DNA of 32,000 nt. Origin: Pseudodesulfovibrio mercurii. GTDB taxonomy: Bacteria > Desulfobacterota > Desulfovibrionia > Desulfovibrionales > Desulfovibrionaceae. The notes beneath the pieces were generated by a model, which worked only from the letters and a program-made list of their open reading frames with translations, was not told the origin of the DNA and ran no database searches. This document shows positions 2,438 to 30,087 of the stretch, piece after piece (positions within the stretch are counted from its first letter, which is position 1; the number at the start of each line of letters is the position of its first letter). A program made the position numbers and the translations under genes. The stretch lies in NCBI RefSeq assembly GCF_000189295.2, contig NC_016803.1, positions 570,001 to 602,000 on the forward strand, given 5' to 3'.

Positions 2438-3556
2438 TGTTGGAATATCCCGAGCTCAAGGCCGCCTCGGCGGACCTCATCGACCAATACGAATCCCTCT
2501 GGGGGCGTCTTTGACTACGCCGAGACCAAAACGCGCCTCGACGCGATAGAAAAGGAAATCTCCAAACCCGGGGCCTGGGACAATCCCGAGGCCCTGACCC
2601 CGCTGCTCAAGGAAAAGAGCCAGCTCTCCACCAAGCTCGAAATGTATGACGGCCTGTCCGAGGCCAAGGACGACCTGGACGCCTGGCTCGAACTGGCCCA
2701 GGAGGACCCGGACGAGGAATCGCTCAGCGCCCTGAACGCCCAGGTGGCCCTGCTTCGCGAGCGGCTGGCCGGGACCGAGCTGGCGACCATGTTCGCCTTC
2801 GAACACGACAAGGGCGACGCCATCCTCGAAATCCATCCCGGCGCGGGCGGCGTCGAGTCCCAGGACTGGGCCGAGATGCTTCTGCGCATGTACTACCGCT
2901 ACGCCGAGCGCAAGGGGTTCAAGGTCACCCAGCTGGACTACCAGGCGGGCGAGGAGGCGGGGCTCAAGTCCGTGACCCTCCAGATCGAGGGGCTGTTCGC
3001 CTACGGCCTGCTCAAGGGCGAGACCGGCGTGCACCGGCTGATCCGCATCTCCCCCTTCGATTCCTCGGGCAGGCGGCACACCTCGTTCGCCTCGGTGGAC
3101 GTGTACCCGGACATGGACGAGAACATCGAGATCGAGGTCAAGGACGAGGACCTGCGCATCGACACCTTCCGGTCCAGCGGGCCCGGCGGGCAGTCCGTGA
3201 ACAAGACCAGCTCAGCCGTGCGCATCACCCACATCCCCACCGGCATCGTGGCCCAGTGCCAGAACGAGAAATCCCAGCACCGCAACAAGGCCACGGCCCT
3301 GCGGCTGGTCAAGGCCCGGCTCTACGAGCGGGAGCTGAAGAAGATCGAGGAAAGCCGCAGGCAGGACTACCAGGCCAAGGACGCCATCGCCTGGGGCAGC
3401 CAGATACGGACATACACCCTGCAACCGTATCGTTTGGTCAAGGACCACCGATCCAACTGCGAAAGCGGCAACGTGGACGCCTTTCTGGACGGCGATCTGG
3501 ACGAAATGATCCGAAACTACCTATTATTCATCCATGCCCACGGACAAAAGCATTAA
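2437..3556 (+). CDS. prfB: peptide chain release factor 2, expressed through a programmed +1 ribosomal frameshift (join 2437..2511, 2513..3556)
   Basis: ATG 2437 overlaps the lnt stop (TAATG). Frame 0 reads [25 protein letters not shown] then TGA (2512-2514). The +1 frame from GAC 2513 reads [26 protein letters not shown].. and joins ORF 2642..3556. That ORF carries the RF2 SPF motif ([15 protein letters not shown]) and the GGQ motif ([11 protein letters not shown]). Confidence 0.93.
2500..2515 (+). other. RF2 autoregulatory +1 frameshift site (SD-like GGGGG, 3-nt spacer, CTT TGA C)
   Basis: The sequence tGGGGGcgtCTTTGAC has the same architecture as the canonical AGGGGG-N3-CUU UGA C recoding site. 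The downstream frame is offset by exactly +1 from the upstream frame. Confidence 0.9.
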
Positions 3557-4386
3557 ATTCCCCGAGAACGAGCTGGCCTCGGAACTGACCGCGCTCCAGG
3601 AGGAGCTGTGCGAGTTTTCCAAGCAGTCCGGCCGGGATCTCGAACACGCGGTCTGGGTCTTCCGGCTCATCCAGGGGGTCTCCTGCGAGGAGTGGGAGTC
3701 CATCGCCGCCCGGCGCGATCTCGGGCAGTGGCTCTCCCTGCCCATCAACGGCGACGCCTACCCGCAGCTGAAGCGGTTCCAGGAGACCCTGGAGCGGCTT
3801 GCCTACCAGACCGACCACGACCCGCTGACCGGGCTGGCCAATCGGCGCGCCTTCGACCGCATCCTGGACATCGAGATCGAGCGCTCCAAGCGCGCCCGCA
3901 CCCCCCCTCTCCCTGGCCATCTTCGACCTGGACGACTTCAAGCGCATCAACGACACCTACGGCCACCAGAAGGGGGACGAGGTCCTGAGCACCTTTGCCG
4001 GGCACCTCAAGGCGCACACCCGGCGCTACGACCTGGCGGCCCGCTTCGGCGGCGAGGAGTTCGCCCTGATCATGGCCGGGTCCGGCCTGGTCCGGGCCCA
4101 GCGGCTCCTGGCACGGCTTCTCCAGGAGTTCAGGGAGATCGAATTCACCACCCCGGACGGCGACGGGACCTTCCACGTCACCTGCTCCGTGGGCCTGACC
4201 TGCTACAAGGGCAGCGTGAACATCACGGACAGGGAACTGATCGAACTGGCCGACGGCGCGCTCTACGAGGCCAAGGGTGCCGGCAAGGATCAGATCAAGG
4301 TCTCCAGGCTCGCCTTTGCGGACAACGTCCCCAGCGAGACCCTGGTGCACGCCAACGAAAAGCAGTTCCTGTTCGGCGGGAAATAA
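3534..4386 (+). pseudogene. GGDEF-domain diguanylate cyclase split by a 1-nt frameshift at a C7 homopolymer (3901-3907). It could be a true pseudogene, a slippage variant or a sequencing error.
   Basis: The frame from ATG 3534 reads ..LAYQTDHDPLTGLANRRAFDRILDIEIERSKRARTP and then becomes nonsense. The +1 frame from 3907 reads LSLAIFDLDDFKRINDTYGHQKGDEVL..HTRRYDLAARFGGEEFALIMAG.. with no stop until 4386. This carries a GGEEF active site and an RxxD I-site 5 residues upstream. Removing one C from the run restores a 283-aa protein. Confidence 0.75.
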
Positions 4387-5345: not shown

Positions 5346-5621
5346 ATGAACAAGAGCGAATTGATCAAGGCTCTGTCAGAACAAAAGAAAATGCACGTTG
5401 ACGAGGCCACCAAGGTGGTCGGCGCCTTCGTGGATTCCGTCAAGGAAGCCCTGCTTCGGGGCGACCGCGTGGAAATCCGGGGTTTTGGCAGCTTCAAGAT
5501 CAAGGACTACGAGGGATACACCGGGCGCAATCCCAAGACCGGGACCGTCGTCCAGGTCCGGCCCAAGAAACTTCCCTTCTTCCGTCCCGGCAAAGAGTTG
5601 AAGGAATACATCAACCAGTAG
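5346..5621 (+). CDS. ihfB: integration host factor beta subunit / HU-family DNA-bending protein
   Basis: MNKSELIKAL.. VEIRGFGSFKIKDYEGYTGRNPKTGTVVQVRPKKLPFFRPGKELK has the IHF-beta-type RGFGSF and PFFRPGKEL signatures. GGGGGA precedes ATG 5346. The longer track ORF from 5316 lacks an SD. Confidence 0.8.
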   Translation: MNKSELIKALSEQKKMHVDEATKVVGAFVDSVKEALLRGDRVEIRGFGSFKIKDYEGYTGRNPKTGTVVQVRPKKLPFFRPGKELKEYINQ

Positions 5622-5622
5622 G

Positions 5623-6483
5623 ATGCGACGACTTTCATACTGCCTGTTTCTGGCGGTCATGGTCCTTGTGTGCGGCGACGCCCGCGCGCAGGGTTCTCTT
5701 TTGACCATCCTTTACTCGGCAAATACGTATGGCACGGTGCGGCCATGCCCGACCTGAGGCGGCAAGACCCTCGGAGGGGTGGCCCGTCGGGCCACGTATT
5801 TTATGGACGTCCCCAAAACGGACGCTCCCTTGCTGCTGGTCTCCGGCGGCTGGGAGTACATCCGTCCCAACGGCAATCCGGGGCTGGCCAAAACCATGGT
5901 CTCCCTGAGTCGGGCCTACAACGCCATGCACTACGATGTGGGACTCCTCACGGCCAGGGAGGCCAAGGCCCTTGCCGGGGACGACGTGCCCCGCTGGCCG
6001 TGGCAGAAGACGGCCGGGGAAGAGCCCTTCACGGTGCGGGAACTGCCGGACGGCCGCAAGGTCGGCTTCCTGCGTTACCCGTCCCTGCCGGACGGGGCCG
6101 ACGCCCCGTCGCCTGAGCTGGCCGCAGAGGTCTCCCGCCGGGTCAAGGCGGAACGGGGCCGGGTGGACCTGCTTATCGGTCTGTGCGACTGGGGCTGGGT
6201 GGCGGAGAACGACTATCTTCGATCCAACCCGGAACAGGTCCCGGACATGCTCTTCGGCAGCGGCGGCGGGTCCGGCATCAACGGACGGGTCCTGGCCGAT
6301 GGCCGGTGCCTGTGGGTCCGGCCCTACGACAGGGGCCGCAGCCTGGTCGAGATAACCGTCCTGCAATGGCCGGAAAGAGAAAATTCATTTGCCTGGGAAG
6401 AGGCGAAGAATTATACCTCGTCTTCCATAGGCATGAACGACGCGATCAAGGACAATCCGGAGATCGGGGCCCTGTTCCAGTAG
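5623..6483 (+). CDS. candidate secreted selenoprotein (CxxU), with a degenerate metallophosphoesterase/5'-nucleotidase-like N-terminal layout. The in-frame TGA at 5755-5757 is read as Sec.
   Basis: ATG 5623 lies 1 nt after the ihfB stop and encodes the signal peptide MRRLSYCLFLAVMVLVCGDARA/QG. The same frame continues as SLLTILYSANTYGTVRPCPT-TGA-GGKTLGGVARRATYFMD.. straight into track ORF 5779..6483. The offset of 156 nt is a multiple of 3. The only interruption is the TGA, which sits in a Cys-x-x-TGA context. Confidence 0.55.
5779..5795 (+). other. SECIS-like hairpin candidate downstream of the in-frame UGA
   Basis: Perfect 7-bp stem GUGGCCC / GGGCCAC with apical GUC. The loop G-U lies about 30 nt 3' of the UGA, within the spacing range used for bacterial SECIS models. 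Confidence 0.4.
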
Positions 6484-6526
6484 GAAGGGCTGCGGATTCG
6501 GGTGGCTACGTATACTTTAGGAGGAG

Positions 6527-7414
6527 ATGACGATGGAATTACGAGGAGCTTTCACCGCTCTCTCGACGCCCTTCAAGGATGGCGAGGTCGACGAATCGAC
6601 CTACCGCGATTTCATTGAATGGCAGATCGAGCAGGGTATCGACGGGCTGGTGCCCTGCGGCACCACCGGCGAAGCGGCGACCATGTCCCACGAGGAACAG
6701 GGACGGGTCATCAAAATCTGCGTGGATCAGACCAAAGGCCGCGTGCCCGTGGTTGCCGGAGCCGGGTCCAACTCCACCAAGGAGGCCATCGAGCTGACCA
6801 AGATGGCCAGGGACGCCGGGGCCGACGCCACCCTGCAGATCACGCCCTACTACAACAAACCGACTCCGGGCGGCCTGGTGGCCCACTTCAAGGCCATCGC
6901 CGACGCGGCCCACATGCCCATGGTCATCTACAACGTGCCCGGCCGGACCGGTCTGAACTGCCTGCCGTCCACGCTGAAGAAGATCAAGGACGCCGTGCCC
7001 GAGGCCATTGCGGTCAAGGAGGCCACCGGCAACCTCTGCCAGGGCGCCGAGGTCGTGGAGCTGTGCGGCCGCGACTTCAAGCTGCTGTCCGGCGACGACT
7101 TCACTTCCCTGCCCCTGCTGGCCGTGGGCGGCGTGGGCGTCATCTCCGTCATTTCCAACATCATGCCCAAGGCCGTGAGCGCCATGTGCAAGGCCTTCTT
7201 CGACAAGGACCACGAGAAGGCCCTGGAACTCAGCCTCAAGATGGCCCCGGTCAACCGGGCCATGTTCATGGAGACCAATCCCATCCCGGTCAAGACCTCG
7301 CTGGCCATGATGGGCATCTTCAAGGACGCGCAGTTCCGCCTGCCCATCGTGCCCCTGCAGGACGAGAACAAACCCAAACTGGAAGCCGTGCTGAAAACTG
7401 CCGGTCTCTTGTGA
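6527..7414 (+). CDS. dapA: 4-hydroxy-tetrahydrodipicolinate synthase
   Basis: Translation LRGAFTALSTPFKDGEVDE..GIDGLVPCGTTGEAATMS..ITPYYNKPT..IYNVPGRTG and overall length are typical of DapA. AGGAGGA is present upstream. ATG 6533 is an alternative start. Confidence 0.93.
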   Translation: MTMELRGAFTALSTPFKDGEVDESTYRDFIEWQIEQGIDGLVPCGTTGEAATMSHEEQGRVIKICVDQTKGRVPVVAGAGSNSTKEAIELTKMARDAGADATLQITPYYNKPTPGGLVAHFKAIADAAHMPMVIYNVPGRTGLNCLPSTLKKIKDAVPEAIAVKEATGNLCQGAEVVELCGRDFKLLSGDDFTSLPLLAVGGVGVISVISNIMPKAVSAMCKAFFDKDHEKALELSLKMAPVNRAMFMETNPIPVKTSLAMMGIFKDAQFRLPIVPLQDENKPKLEAVLKTAGLL

Positions 7415-7421
7415 TATTTGA

Positions 7422-7450
7422 AGGCCTCGGCATGTGCCGGGGCCTTTTTT
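7422..7450 (+). terminator. rho-independent terminator after dapA (first of two)
   Basis: aGGCCtCGGCAtgTGCCGgGGCCt stem-loop followed by TTTTTT. Confidence 0.7.
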
Positions 7451-7467
7451 CGTCATCTCCCGGAAAA

Positions 7468-7493
7468 GGGACGGCCCGCGCCGTCCCTTTTTT
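7468..7493 (+). terminator. second rho-independent terminator (A-tract upstream, T-tract downstream)
   Basis: GGGACGGC-ccgc-GCCGTCCC is a perfect 8-bp stem followed by TTTTTT, and is preceded by AAAA. Confidence 0.7.
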
Positions 7494-7659
7494 GCGTCCG
7501 GCGAATGGCCTCTCGGCCTACTCGGTCTGCCTCCCGGAGGGGCCATGGACGCCCGTGCGGGTCGGCGCTGGACAGGGATGGGGTCTCCGGGGCAGTATGG
7601 CCCGTGCCGCCCGCGACCGGGGCGGCCGAAACCGACAACCGCACGCAGGTGATCCGGGC

Positions 7660-13346: not shown

Positions 13347-14015
13347 TTACCTGCGGCGCGCCCGGGCTCGGGCGACCCCCAGGGCGCTCAACAGCCCCAG
13401 GCCAAAGAGAATGATGGTCGAGGGTTCGGGAACCGGCGTCGTTTCGATGGTCAGGGCGCCTGAATAATAGATTGTCTCCGGGCTTTGGGTGTCCATCTGG
13501 GCAAGATAGAACGGCACGAGCGGTATCAGCTCGGAAAGATCCAGGATGATGTTCGCGATCTGGTTTTCGGCCAGGGAGAAGGTCCAGCCCAGGGCAAAGG
13601 AGACGTCGTCGTCATTCCCCCAAGGCAGGGCATTGGTGTTGTCGAGGGCGCCGGCCAGCACGTGGGTGTAGATGTCCCCGAACAGGAAGCCCGGCTCATC
13701 GATTTCCCACATCATGCCGGGAGCGGGGACACCGACCGCCGCGCCGTATTCGTTGAAGAAGGTGTTCAGCGGCTCGTCGATCTCATAATCGAAAAAGGCG
13801 ATGAACGTGTGGCTTCCCGCTTCGCTGGTGGACCAGCTCAGCTCACCCAAGCCGTCGGTCAGGCTGCCGCTTACCGGCATGTCGCCGGAAGTGGTAATGA
13901 CGCCGTCGATGTTGAATGCCCAGTCGTACAGGGTGATGGACGGATTGGCGAAGGCTTCGGAGGTGACGAGGCAGAAACACAAAACGACCAGCCAAAGGAA
14001 TCTACGGATGTTCAT
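13347..14015 (-). CDS. PEP-CTERM sorting-signal protein (secreted, function unknown)
   Basis: The C-terminus ..TPVPEPSTIILFGLGLLSALGVARARARRR has the VPEP motif, a TM helix and an Arg cluster. The N-terminal signal peptide is MNIRRFLWLVVLCFCLVTSEAFA. Start ATG 14015 is preceded by AAAGGAA. G+C is visibly lower than in neighbouring genes. Confidence 0.85.
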   Translation of the reverse strand: MNIRRFLWLVVLCFCLVTSEAFANPSITLYDWAFNIDGVITTSGDMPVSGSLTDGLGELSWSTSEAGSHTFIAFFDYEIDEPLNTFFNEYGAAVGVPAPGMMWEIDEPGFLFGDIYTHVLAGALDNTNALPWGNDDDVSFALGWTFSLAENQIANIILDLSELIPLVPFYLAQMDTQSPETIYYSGALTIETTPVPEPSTIILFGLGLLSALGVARARARRR

Positions 14016-14055
14016 GTTACGGTTCCTTTTGTTGAGTTCGTGTGTATTGTTTCCC

Positions 14056-14071
14056 AGCAATAAACATTCCT
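14056..14071 (-). promoter_or_regulatory. sigma-54 (-24/-12) promoter candidate for the PEP-CTERM gene
   Basis: The minus strand reads AGGAATG-TTTA-TTGCT against the consensus TGGCACG-N4-TTGCW. The invariant GG and GC have exact spacing, and 9 of 12 defined positions match. The predicted TSS is about 30 nt upstream of ATG 14015. Confidence 0.45.
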
Positions 14072-28110: not shown

Positions 28111-28206
28111 GGAGAGGTAGCGAAGTCCGGCCGTAACGCGCTCGACTCGAAATCGAGTTACGAGTTAATAGCTCGTACGTGGGTTCGAATCCCACCCTCT
28201 CCGCCA
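28111..28206 (+). tRNA. tRNA-Ser (anticodon CGA), type II with a long variable arm and encoded CCA
   Basis: Manual cloverleaf. The acceptor stem is GGAGAGG/CCTCTCC. The anticodon stem is CTCGA/TCGAG with loop CU-CGA-AA. The variable arm is ACGAG-ttaatag-CTCGT. The T arm is GTGGG-TTCGAAT-CCCAC. The discriminator is G, followed by CCA. Confidence 0.9.
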
Positions 28207-28347: not shown

Positions 28348-30087
28348 ATGAGCCATATCGTCCTTGACGGGAGCACCCATCACTTCCGTTATCGCGTTCC
28401 GCAGCAGTTCCATTCCGTCATCGGTCAGCAGGTCATCAAGGTGAGCCTGAAGACTGGCAACAAGCGCCTTGCCAACCAACGGGCCGAACGGTTAGCTTCG
28501 GCGGTCCGATCCTTTTTCACCCTGTTGCCCGACACGACCATGAACACGCTCTCCCCTGCCGATCTCAAAGCCAAGCTCCGAGCCTTCCTCGAACAGTGCC
28601 TTTACGAGGACGAAGGCAAACGAGCCATGCCGCCCCTTGAGGACCGAACACCGATCCCTGCCCATTTTCCGAAAGACCATGAACCGAGCAGGCTGGAGAT
28701 GTACATCGATGAGGCTGGTGCTGGGCTGGCACAGTCCGACTACACTTTCTTCGGTTCGTACATTGACCGCTTCATCACGCAGAGCGGCATTGAGGTGGCC
28801 CCGGATTCGACGGATTTTTACCGCATAGCCCGTGGCGTTTACGAGATGGTGTTCGACCTGCTGAACGTCCAACACTGCCGGGCGATGGGAGATGTGCTGG
28901 GTGAGCGGGAGTACTTGGCCAAGCTGCCTCCTGTTTCCGTTTCTCTACCGCAACCATCCATTCCTGTCCCCCTGCCCCAGCCGACGCAACCGGCTCCGGT
29001 TCTCGAAGCCGTGATGGAAAAGTACATCGAAGACAAGACCAAGTCGGAATGGGGCAAGGCCAGCATCAAGGACATCCCGCCGCAACTGCGCCGTTTCGTC
29101 GAATACGTCGGCTCCGGCATCCGCATCGACGAATTGACCCGTGACCACATGCGACTGTATCGCGACATCATCACGGGCCTGCCCAACGGCAACCACATCG
29201 CCAAGTACCGAGGCAAGACAAGAGACGAACTGCTTGCCATGGACATACCAGCGGCACATCGGCTCAAGTCCAAGTCCCTCGAAACCAACTACACCAACGT
29301 CAAATCCTTCCTGAACTGGTGTTGTGAAGAGGAGTTCCTCACGCAGGCTAATCCGTTGAAATCCGTCCTCAAGCTCGGCAAGAGCAACACCAACGCGACC
29401 ACGCCCAAACGCCGAGCCTTCACCCTCGACGAATTGAAAGCCCTGTTCGAGAACAAGGACTACCACAAGGGGAAATTCACCCATGCGGCCAACTTTTGGG
29501 TACCGATCATCGCGCTCTTTTCCGGCGCACGGCTGGAGGAAATCTGCCAGCTCTACCTTGATGACATACGCGAGATCGACGGCGTCATGTGCTTCGACAT
29601 CAATGCCGAGGATGACAAGGACATCAAGTCAGAGGCCGGAAAGCGGATTGTCCCCATCCATCCGTTCCTCATCGAGATCGGCCTGCTGGACCGTGTCGCC
29701 CACCTCCGAGCCAACGGAGAAGAACACCTCTTCCACCGCAGCACCTTGAGTCAAGCTGACGGCAAGCTATCCACCAACATCTCGAAGGCGTTCACCTACT
29801 TCCGGCGCAAGTATGGAATAGGCGGCAGCACCGACGAGACGAGCGAGGTGGTATTCCACTCATTCCGGCATACCGTCATCACGCTGGGCAAACACAAACG
29901 CGTTGACCGCAGGCTGGTCAAGGAAGTGGTCGGCCACGAAGAAGGTGAGTTCGAAGATGTGACCGGCGGCTACGAGGGAGCCGATCCGGTGAAGGCCAAG
30001 TTCGAGGAATTCATTTGCCAGATCGACTTCGACAAGGTGATGGACCTCGGCCATCTCAAGGGCAGCATGTGGATCACCAAGAGGTGA
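28348..30087 (+). CDS. tyrosine-type site-specific recombinase / phage integrase (579 aa, long N-terminal arm-type region)
   Basis: The catalytic contexts are FSGARLEEICQL (Arg I), HSFRHTVIT (H-x-x-R) and VGHEEG..TGGYEG (His/Tyr region). The N-terminus HHFRYRVPQQF..IKVSLKTGNKRLA resembles island-integrase N-domains. GGGAG lies upstream of the ATG. Confidence 0.88.
   Translation: MSHIVLDGSTHHFRYRVPQQFHSVIGQQVIKVSLKTGNKRLANQRAERLASAVRSFFTLLPDTTMNTLSPADLKAKLRAFLEQCLYEDEGKRAMPPLEDRTPIPAHFPKDHEPSRLEMYIDEAGAGLAQSDYTFFGSYIDRFITQSGIEVAPDSTDFYRIARGVYEMVFDLLNVQHCRAMGDVLGEREYLAKLPPVSVSLPQPSIPVPLPQPTQPAPVLEAVMEKYIEDKTKSEWGKASIKDIPPQLRRFVEYVGSGIRIDELTRDHMRLYRDIITGLPNGNHIAKYRGKTRDELLAMDIPAAHRLKSKSLETNYTNVKSFLNWCCEEEFLTQANPLKSVLKLGKSNTNATTPKRRAFTLDELKALFENKDYHKGKFTHAANFWVPIIALFSGARLEEICQLYLDDIREIDGVMCFDINAEDDKDIKSEAGKRIVPIHPFLIEIGLLDRVAHLRANGEEHLFHRSTLSQADGKLSTNISKAFTYFRRKYGIGGSTDETSEVVFHSFRHTVITLGKHKRVDRRLVKEVVGHEEGEFEDVTGGYEGADPVKAKFEEFICQIDFDKVMDLGHLKGSMWITKR

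Follow-up and report, generated by a model that had tools for sequence, protein, structure and literature searches.

A probable exported selenoprotein of UshA-like family 2 in Pseudodesulfovibrio mercurii, truncated in the public record at its in-frame TGA

A COG0737 UshA-like selenoprotein with a Cys-x-Sec (CxU) motif has been known since 2008 (Zhang and Gladyshev, PMC2398784). A 2026 review lists UshA-like family 2 as a CxxU protein with one selenocysteine (Sec), giving WP_420705249.1 as the exemplar and the status 'GenBank annotated' (PMC13188914). Here, we analyzed a stretch of 32,000 nucleotides (nt) from Pseudodesulfovibrio mercurii (contig NC_016803.1, positions 570,001 to 602,000 of the forward strand), which we call the window and in which all coordinates below are given. 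Positions 5623-6483 are very probably a single gene, encoding an exported selenoprotein of UshA-like (seleno)protein family 2 (NF049981). Queried with Cys in place of Sec, the conceptual protein scored 306.1 bits against the NCBIfam model NF049981, 'UshA-like (seleno)protein family 2' (cut-off 140, E 1.9e-91), with residues 27-286 aligned to profile positions 1-262 of 262. NF049981 is an NCBI 'equivalog' model. The selenoprotein family is thus already catalogued, and the finding is a correct rediscovery and not a new one. The gene is conserved and syntenic in Pseudodesulfovibrio and related sulfate reducers, and what is still to be corrected is its truncated 217-residue public gene model.

The reading frame opens at ATG 5623, one base after the stop codon (TAG, 5619-5621) of an HU/IHF-family gene, and closes at TAG 6481-6483, with TGA 5755-5757 as the sole interruption. 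An earlier note, made from the letters of this DNA alone, had described this start and interruption, had read a C-P-T-U motif at the TGA and had foreseen that gene callers would truncate the protein, losing the signal peptide and the active site. All of this was borne out. The codons at 5746-5757 read Cys-Pro-Thr-TGA, and the public entry starts at TTG 5830, leaving 217 residues. Translational coupling of the selenoprotein gene to the HU/IHF-family gene is likely on sequence grounds, because the stop of the latter lies 1 nt before ATG 5623. The features at the locus are as follows.

5623-6483, forward strand: probable complete selenoprotein gene, UshA-like (seleno)protein family 2; 286 codons plus stop, with Sec as codon 45
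5746-5757, forward strand: Cys42-Pro-Thr-Sec45 motif, codons TGC CCG ACC TGA
5755-5757, forward strand: UGA, read here as selenocysteine; TGA in 18 of 18 orthologous loci, Cys in distant homologues
5830-6483, forward strand: truncated public gene call, 217 aa from TTG 5830
5346-5621, forward strand: upstream HU/IHF-family DNA-binding protein gene, Pfam PF00216 (Bac_DNA_binding), 107 bits

The mechanical list of open reading frames (ORFs) splits the gene into a 44-codon ORF at 5623-5757 and a 234-codon ORF from GTG 5779. A GGAGG stands 2 nt 5' of this GTG, a spacing too short for a normal Shine-Dalgarno sequence. It is made up of conserved Gly codons, and its third positions vary freely among relatives. 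The public entry (P0001) is 100% identical over its 217 aa and is called 'hypothetical protein [Pseudodesulfovibrio mercurii]', while UniRef names this truncated entry after UshA-like (seleno)protein family 2. In a word-indexed search, 35 of 35 database relatives covered at most 83% of the conceptual protein; therefore, all of them are N-terminally short. The P. mercurii record and most database members of the family are cut off at the Sec codon, so that the signal peptide and the only plausible active site are lost. Proteomic or functional studies that use the public gene model would miss both.

To follow the TGA through the relatives, we fetched orthologue DNA from genomes and metagenomes, which gave 18 distinct loci with proteins 45-83% identical to the window protein; a scan of a genome collection with a single protein as query gave two loci. 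In each of the 18 loci the Sec column holds TGA; no TAA, TAG or sense codon occurs there. Each locus has exactly one in-frame stop, always in this column. Going 5' from the called start, the frame stays open as far as an ATG in every case (18/18), and this ATG lies 0-1 nt after the stop of the HU-like gene. The earlier note had named homologues starting at the equivalent of position 5779 as evidence that would speak against it; the 18 loci instead all keep the 44 upstream residues. The peptide around the TGA is near-invariant: MRR, a hydrophobic core and AxA are followed by VLTILYSANTYGTVRPCP[TS]-TGA-GG[KR]TLGGVARRATYF. Many of the codons flanking the TGA vary freely at synonymous sites, Pro43 using all four codons and Tyr31 using TAC and TAT at 9:9. 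Since these codons vary synonymously while the peptide stays, it is the protein that is conserved, both before and after the TGA. Synonymous sites vary less at 5725-5748, immediately 5' of the UGA (Gly37 GGC in 18/18, Thr35 ACG in 15/18, Pro41 CCA in 15/18), and we found no convincing conserved pairing partner for this constrained region.

More distant members of the family carry Cys at the same column. An exhaustive HMMER search of 1.84 billion representatives, with a profile of the part after the TGA, returned 271 clusters at E <=1e-3. Among the best 150 of these 271 clusters, most N-termini fall a few residues after the Sec column, typically as M-ARRAT or M-GGLARRAT, which we read as the footprint of gene callers restarting after a TGA. 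The region upstream of the Sec column is retained in 26 clusters; 25 have C-x-x-C there (CPVC, CPTC, CAVC and others) and one has W. The earlier note had asked whether homologues align a TGA or a Cys with this column, and both occur, TGA in the 18 loci and Cys in about 25 full-length distant homologues. The member with W (P0066) is full-length and reads K-P-C-P-S-W-G, most likely because a caller working with a different genetic code read a TGA as Trp. In an alignment of 34 sequences, all 34 have Cys42, and 33 have Cys or Sec at position 45, where the remaining one has W. These two positions are the best-conserved side chains of the family, whose common motif is C-P-x-[C/U]-G; the second Cys of the window protein, Cys229, is not invariant.

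Two of the Cys forms, P0040 and P0049, occupy the same place between an HU gene and dapA on other contigs. P0040 has prfB-GGDEF-ParA-like-HU upstream and dapA-DHH...rpoN downstream; P0049 has GGDEF-ParA-like-HU upstream, where its contig ends, and again dapA-DHH...rpoN downstream. From this arrangement, they seem to be positional orthologues, with an exchange between Cys and Sec. A distant Cys form, P0163, stands in a context wholly unlike the HU-dapA locus, in a cluster (L032, 1-16882) with prepilin-type (N_methyl), MshE/T2SS-E ATPase, T2SS-F and TPR genes, downstream of a molybdopterin oxidoreductase. The relatives conserve the TGA, the coding sequence flanking it on either side and the hairpin described below to a degree far beyond chance. 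Based on these comparisons, we regard the in-frame TGA at 5755-5757 as a genuine selenocysteine codon.

Two elements in the coding sequence after the UGA bear on how it would be decoded, the first being a candidate selenocysteine insertion sequence (SECIS).

5779-5795, forward strand: candidate bacterial SECIS hairpin, GTGGCCC-GTC-GGGCCAC, perfect 7-bp stem and 3-nt loop G-U-C
5796-5808, forward strand: U-rich tract directly 3' of the hairpin, GUAUUUUAUGGAC here and GUAUUUUUUUGAC in many relatives, under synonymous-site constraint

The hairpin has a folding energy of -12.2 kcal/mol, and 28 nt lie between the UGA and its loop. The published consensus for bacterial SECIS (bSECIS) elements has a loop of 3-9 nt, a stem of 4-16 bp, a distance of 16-37 nt from the UGA and a minimum free energy <= -7.5 kcal/mol, with G in the first two loop positions, usually G and then G or U (PMC13188914, Fig. 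2 legend). The hairpin, which had already been pointed out as a perfect 7-bp stem with a GUC apex at a SECIS-compatible distance, agrees with this consensus, its loop being G-U-C here and G-G-C in relatives. Across 19 sequences, pairing is kept in 99.2% of the cells; the stem differs only by C-to-U substitutions opposite G, in 6 cells, and by a single terminal pair that is broken. We also compared third-position entropy over the 32 columns with an invariant fourfold codon box, 4 of them in the stem and 18 outside residues 35-58. The stem values are 0.31, 0.00, 0.85 and 0.50 bits, against >=0.99 bits at 18 of 18 columns outside residues 35-58. Arg56, for example, is CGG in 18/18, while Arg222 and Arg228 use all four CGN codons. 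The exact hairpin with its U tract was not found at the equivalent place in three Cys-form genes.

Several results count against a selenoprotein gene decoded with the help of this hairpin. Because the stem codes for the invariant peptide V-A-R-R-A-T, information can come from its third codon positions alone. No stem pair is changed on both sides in the 19 sequences, hence there is no strict covariation; of the covariation check proposed in the earlier note, the part that stands is that the hairpin is kept with pair-preserving changes. Of the 867 TGA trinucleotides in the window, 88 (~10%) are followed by a hairpin of >=7 bp (G-U allowed) with SECIS-compatible geometry, and the hairpin at 5779-5795 alone is statistically unremarkable in this GC-rich stretch. 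Dinucleotide shuffles of the 61 nt that follow the TGA fold just as well (z = 0.15), and for this reason we dropped folding energy as evidence. The genes selA, selB, selC and selD are not in the window, where the ~30 ORFs scanned hold no sel domains and the only tRNA is tRNA-Ser(CGA). The literature searched holds no experimental selenium incorporation or activity for this family, and the conserved neighbors in Pseudodesulfovibrio and relatives are housekeeping genes that give no functional clue. An Rfam scan of the window gave no SECIS or other family at the gathering threshold, only one tRNA. P. mercurii ND132 is the current name of Desulfovibrio desulfuricans ND132, which is listed as Sec-utilizing with 6 known selenoproteins (PMC5029168 Table S2), and it is from this published table that the presence of the Sec machinery in this genome is taken. 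A literature search on ND132 or Pseudodesulfovibrio with selenocysteine returned nothing specific to this protein. Taken together, the comparisons give good support, below covariation grade, for the hairpin at 5779-5795 acting as the SECIS.

The region 5' of the TGA restores an N-terminus with the features of an exported protein, and the rest of the frame makes up a single domain.

5623-5688, forward strand: predicted signal peptide, residues 1-22; MRR, hydrophobic core, A-R-A, with predicted signal-peptidase I cleavage after Ala22
5689-6480, forward strand: mature 264-residue single domain, predicted 5'-nucleotidase N-terminal (calcineurin-like) fold, from AlphaFold and Foldseek

The N-terminus, MRRLSYCLFLAVMVLVCGDARA/QG, has two Arg residues, a hydrophobic core of 13-14 residues (9-residue Kyte-Doolittle mean up to 3.4) and Ala at -3 and -1. 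Both alanines, Ala20 and Ala22, are invariant among 10 aligned orthologues, and the Cys-form homologues likewise bear signal-like N-terminal helices; the textbook signal peptide claimed in the earlier note is in keeping with these features. They would place the mature protein in the periplasm. A lipoprotein reading of the N-terminus (LVC) was ruled out by the lack of conservation of Cys17, and twin-arginine export by the MRW found in two orthologues (L017, L018).

We characterized the fold with AlphaFold models of the post-UGA fragment of the window protein (residues 46-286) and of the full-length Cys-form homologue P0040. The fragment model has a mean predicted local distance difference test score (pLDDT) of 76.5, with the first ~40 residues below 50 and the partner strand missing. 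Its top Foldseek matches are 5'-nucleotidase N-domains (YunD, E. coli c4898 and CD73, E 1e-7 to 1e-5). The P0040 model has a pLDDT of 94.1 and a predicted template-modeling score (pTM) of 0.90, and in the PDB it matches CD73, the Thermus (T. thermophilus) 5'-nucleotidase, UshA (2ush) and SoxB at E 1e-13 to 1e-11, with query-normalized Foldseek template-modeling (TM) scores of 0.60-0.67. Sequence searches do not detect this relationship directly. A Pfam scan of the conceptual protein gave nothing up to E = 1, including Metallophos (PF00149) and 5_nucleotid_C (PF02872). An hmmsearch of the PDB sequences with a 10-orthologue profile gave only chance matches to the urokinase receptor, and hhalign of the profile against E. 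coli UshA gave a non-significant match of 31 columns.

The metal ligands of the 5'-nucleotidases, carried by the motifs D-x-H, G-D, G-N-H-E, H and G-H, appear to have been lost. A MAFFT alignment that includes a family-1 protein as a bridge to E. coli UshA and CpdB, uncertain in the motif I region, has SGGD replaced by SGGW, GNHEF by LTARE, THMGH by CDWGW and GGHSQ by GSGGG. At the ligand positions, Asp84 becomes Trp77, Asn116-His117 become Thr/Ala, His217 becomes Asp189 and His252 becomes Gly; Asp189 is not conserved in the wider family. The GGxARRAT and YD structural motifs common to the 5'-nucleotidase family are retained. The models and the alignment support a metallophosphoesterase N-domain repurposed for a function other than phosphoester hydrolysis, in agreement with the earlier proposal of a 5'-nucleotidase/metallophosphoesterase N-domain with replaced ligands.

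Other explanations can be weighed against this evidence. That the TGA is an ordinary stop, dividing a 44-codon upstream ORF from a separate gene of 234 or 217 aa, or marking a nonsense pseudogene, is hardly credible. Gene callers and the public record do annotate the downstream part only, and GTG 5779 is preceded by GGAGG. However, the GGAGG lies 2 nt from the GTG and its third positions are freely variable among relatives. The column is TGA, never TAA or TAG, in 18/18 orthologues down to 45% identity, with the protein conserved across it, and full-length homologues, two of them at the same locus, have Cys there. The downstream piece alone would also be without the signal peptide and the first beta-strand of the fold, and the fragment model falls below a pLDDT of 50 over its N-terminal ~40 residues, against 94 for the full-length Cys form. 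A different proposal concerns the U-rich tract, which could be an extended SECIS determinant or part of an attenuator that links Sec decoding to transcription. The constraint on it is pronounced: Tyr59 is TAT in 18/18 and Phe60 TTT in 17/18, while other invariant Tyr columns are mixed, and of the 5 Leu codons at residue 61, 4 are the rare TTA. Pairing of the tract with an A-rich Lys codon upstream was ruled out, as four orthologues have Arg codons there. GUAUUUU(UUU) follows the GC-rich stem directly, and a terminator scan flags hairpin and tract as terminator-like. It is improbable that they form an intrinsic terminator or attenuator, instead of or besides a SECIS role, and similarly improbable that transcription of the remainder of the gene and of dapA is coupled in this way to the efficiency of Sec decoding. 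In favor are the mark given by the consensus scan, the synonymous constraint that keeps the tract (TAT 18/18, TTT 17/18, Leu as rare TTA), and the absence of hairpin and tract from three Cys forms; a ribosome paused at the UGA, 24 nt upstream, would also leave the hairpin free to form. On the other hand, the terminator scan finds as many sites in shuffled sequence (2 found, 2.2 expected), and the G-U-A between the stem and the U run is suboptimal for termination. Since SelB needs the same hairpin, an efficient terminator would abort transcripts even with selenium present. A literature search on SECIS elements and transcription termination gave no precedent. Were it true, a weak terminator within a SECIS would act as a selenium-sensing attenuator, failed Sec decoding aborting the remainder of the gene and the co-oriented dapA. 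A second terminator-like hairpin of 12 pairs, followed by TTCTCTTTTG, lies at 5664-5693 inside the signal-peptide coding region; it is probably due to chance, because that region varies among relatives.

As to function, our best inference is a periplasmic Cys-Sec site for redox chemistry or metal binding. We favor a redox role because UshA-like family 1 (NF041198) has C-G-Sec in the homologous loop together with a fused multihaem cytochrome c. The earlier note had proposed a redox protein resembling thiol oxidoreductases; the CxxU motif is there, but it does not sit at a thioredoxin-type helix cap, and the redox role stays at the level of inference. In the P0040 model, C-P-V-C-G lies on a beta-hairpin (strands 43-46 and 49-51) right after the first strand and resembles a metal-binding knuckle, which counts against a redox role; UshA-type enzymes pass from motif I into the GGxAR helix at this point. 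A metal-ligand role of the Cys-Sec pair is a serious rival to the redox role. We consider it possible, but the less likely case, that Cys42 and Sec45 are two ligands of a metal or metalloid ion in the remodeled former dimetal pocket and not a redox couple. Conserved Asn34, Glu78, Asp105, Glu113 or Asp208 might then, just as tentatively, be further ligands, and the protein might perhaps be a selenium-ligated metalloprotein or serve in metal or chalcogen binding and trafficking. C-P-x-[C/U]-G is the sequence of a rubredoxin or zinc-ribbon 'knuckle', which counts for metal ligation. So do the placement of the P0040 motif on a beta-hairpin and not at a helix N-cap as in thioredoxin-like CxxC sites, the several acidic residues conserved family-wide, and the scaffold itself, which is a metal-binding fold. 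Against metal ligation, the conserved Cys/Sec residues are only two, Cys229 not being invariant, and residues that do not ligate metal, such as Trp77 and Gly, stand in place of the canonical ligands. The C-G-U spacing and fused cytochrome of family 1 fit electron transfer to a redox site at least equally well. If the Cys-Sec pair did ligate a metal in the remodeled pocket, the protein would be a Se-ligated metalloprotein of a new type. It is very improbable that the protein is a working 5'-nucleotidase, UDP-sugar hydrolase or SoxB-type hydrolase whose selenocysteine is incidental. The fold matches 5'-nucleotidases, UshA and SoxB, the GGxARRAT and YD motifs are common to that family, and the NCBIfam name includes 'UshA-like'; yet there is no Metallophos or 5_nucleotid_C match at E = 1 and no PDB sequence match, the ligand positions are replaced in the UshA/CpdB alignment, and the substrate-binding C-terminal domain is missing (264 aa mature against ~525 aa).

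With the redox role as the preferred reading, the following sequence of events can be proposed. Translation would begin at ATG 5623, probably by coupling with the end of translation of the HU-like gene. The hairpin at 5779-5795 would recruit SelB with Sec-tRNA(Sec), and selenocysteine would be inserted at the UGA at 5755. The precursor would be exported through the Sec pathway and cleaved after Ala22, leaving a mature protein of 264 residues with Cys42-x-x-Sec45 as its putative reactive center. A loop or beta-hairpin linking the first strand to the GGxARRAT helix would hold the motif at the entrance of what was once the dimetal site. Chemically, a selenylsulfide/selenol redox couple in the periplasm is most likely, its target being a partner protein or a small species of sulfur, selenium or a metalloid. 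Electrons may be supplied by a separate periplasmic cytochrome, the sister family 1 carrying a fused multihaem cytochrome c domain.

Some features elsewhere in the window can be recorded here. The upstream GGDEF (diguanylate cyclase) gene at 3534-4386 is frameshifted, with the break at 3905-3919: the 283-aa protein of a relative aligns in one frame to 3534-3905 and in a second frame to 3919-4383. At ~3901-3908 there are 7 consecutive C, against 6 in the relative L011. Either the sequence contains a homopolymer sequencing error or the gene is a true pseudogene, which might be phase-variable. In a release-factor ORF (2642-3556, PCRF and RF-1 domains), the PCRF match does not begin until profile position 41, and its relatives are called at 370-373 aa, which would fit prfB with a programmed +1 frameshift upstream. 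The tRNA-Ser(CGA) at 28111-28206 is directly followed by a 579-aa ORF (28348-30087) with DUF6538 and phage-integrase domains, probably the edge of a mobile element integrated at the tRNA gene. On the reverse strand, a 237-aa ORF (13347-14060) has a PEP-CTERM sorting motif at its C-terminus; it is flanked by an ABC transporter operon on one side and a gene for a DHH-family phosphoesterase on the other.

Compared with known systems, the window protein is closest to NF049981 itself, with which it shares the full-length match and the CxxU motif; there is no difference at the family level, the public P. mercurii record aside. Family 1 (NF041198, UshA_like_PCGU), which is the COG0737 selenoprotein family described in 2008, has a homologous degenerate UshA-like N-domain, and the reciprocal matches of hidden Markov models (HMMs) between the two families are weak but significant (E 1e-9 and 5e-11). 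In both, the Sec lies in the same loop after the first strand and is followed by the GGL..K/R helix residues. The motif of family 1 is C-G-U (CxU), whereas that of family 2 is C-P-x-U. Family 1 proteins are ~520 aa long with a C-terminal multihaem cytochrome c domain, and the window protein has no CxxCH anywhere; it scores 37.3 bits on NF041198, over residues 7-105 only, against a cut-off of 275. An example of family 1 is encoded at 5851-7554 of a locus (L002) from a deltaproteobacterial metagenome-assembled genome. It scores 590 bits on NF041198, has an in-frame TGA in E-P-C-G-TGA and four C-terminal CxxCH motifs matching Pfam Cytochrome_C554, and its ORF is likewise truncated by mechanical calling. 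Because family 1 gives weak HMM matches to UshA, SoxB and CpdB, the families are linked by sequence.

The thioredoxin-fold CxxU/UxxC selenoproteins (SelW-like, DsbA-like, Prx-like and others) share with the window protein a Cys/Sec pair spaced by two residues and the existence of Cys homologues, and some of them are also exported. Their fold is entirely different, and their motif stands at a helix N-terminus, in contrast to the beta-hairpin in the model of the Cys-form homologue. With the 5'-nucleotidase/UshA/CD73/SoxB family, the window protein has in common the N-domain fold, the order of strands and helices, and the GGxARxAT and YD motifs. UshA is exported, and the window protein likewise carries a predicted signal peptide. 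UshA has ~525 aa, however, whereas the mature window protein has 264 and is without the C-terminal substrate-binding 5'-nucleotidase domain. It also differs from that family in the C-x-x-Sec loop inserted after motif I. A metallophosphoesterase scaffold is thus seen here apparently without its metal site and with an acquired Cys-Sec center.

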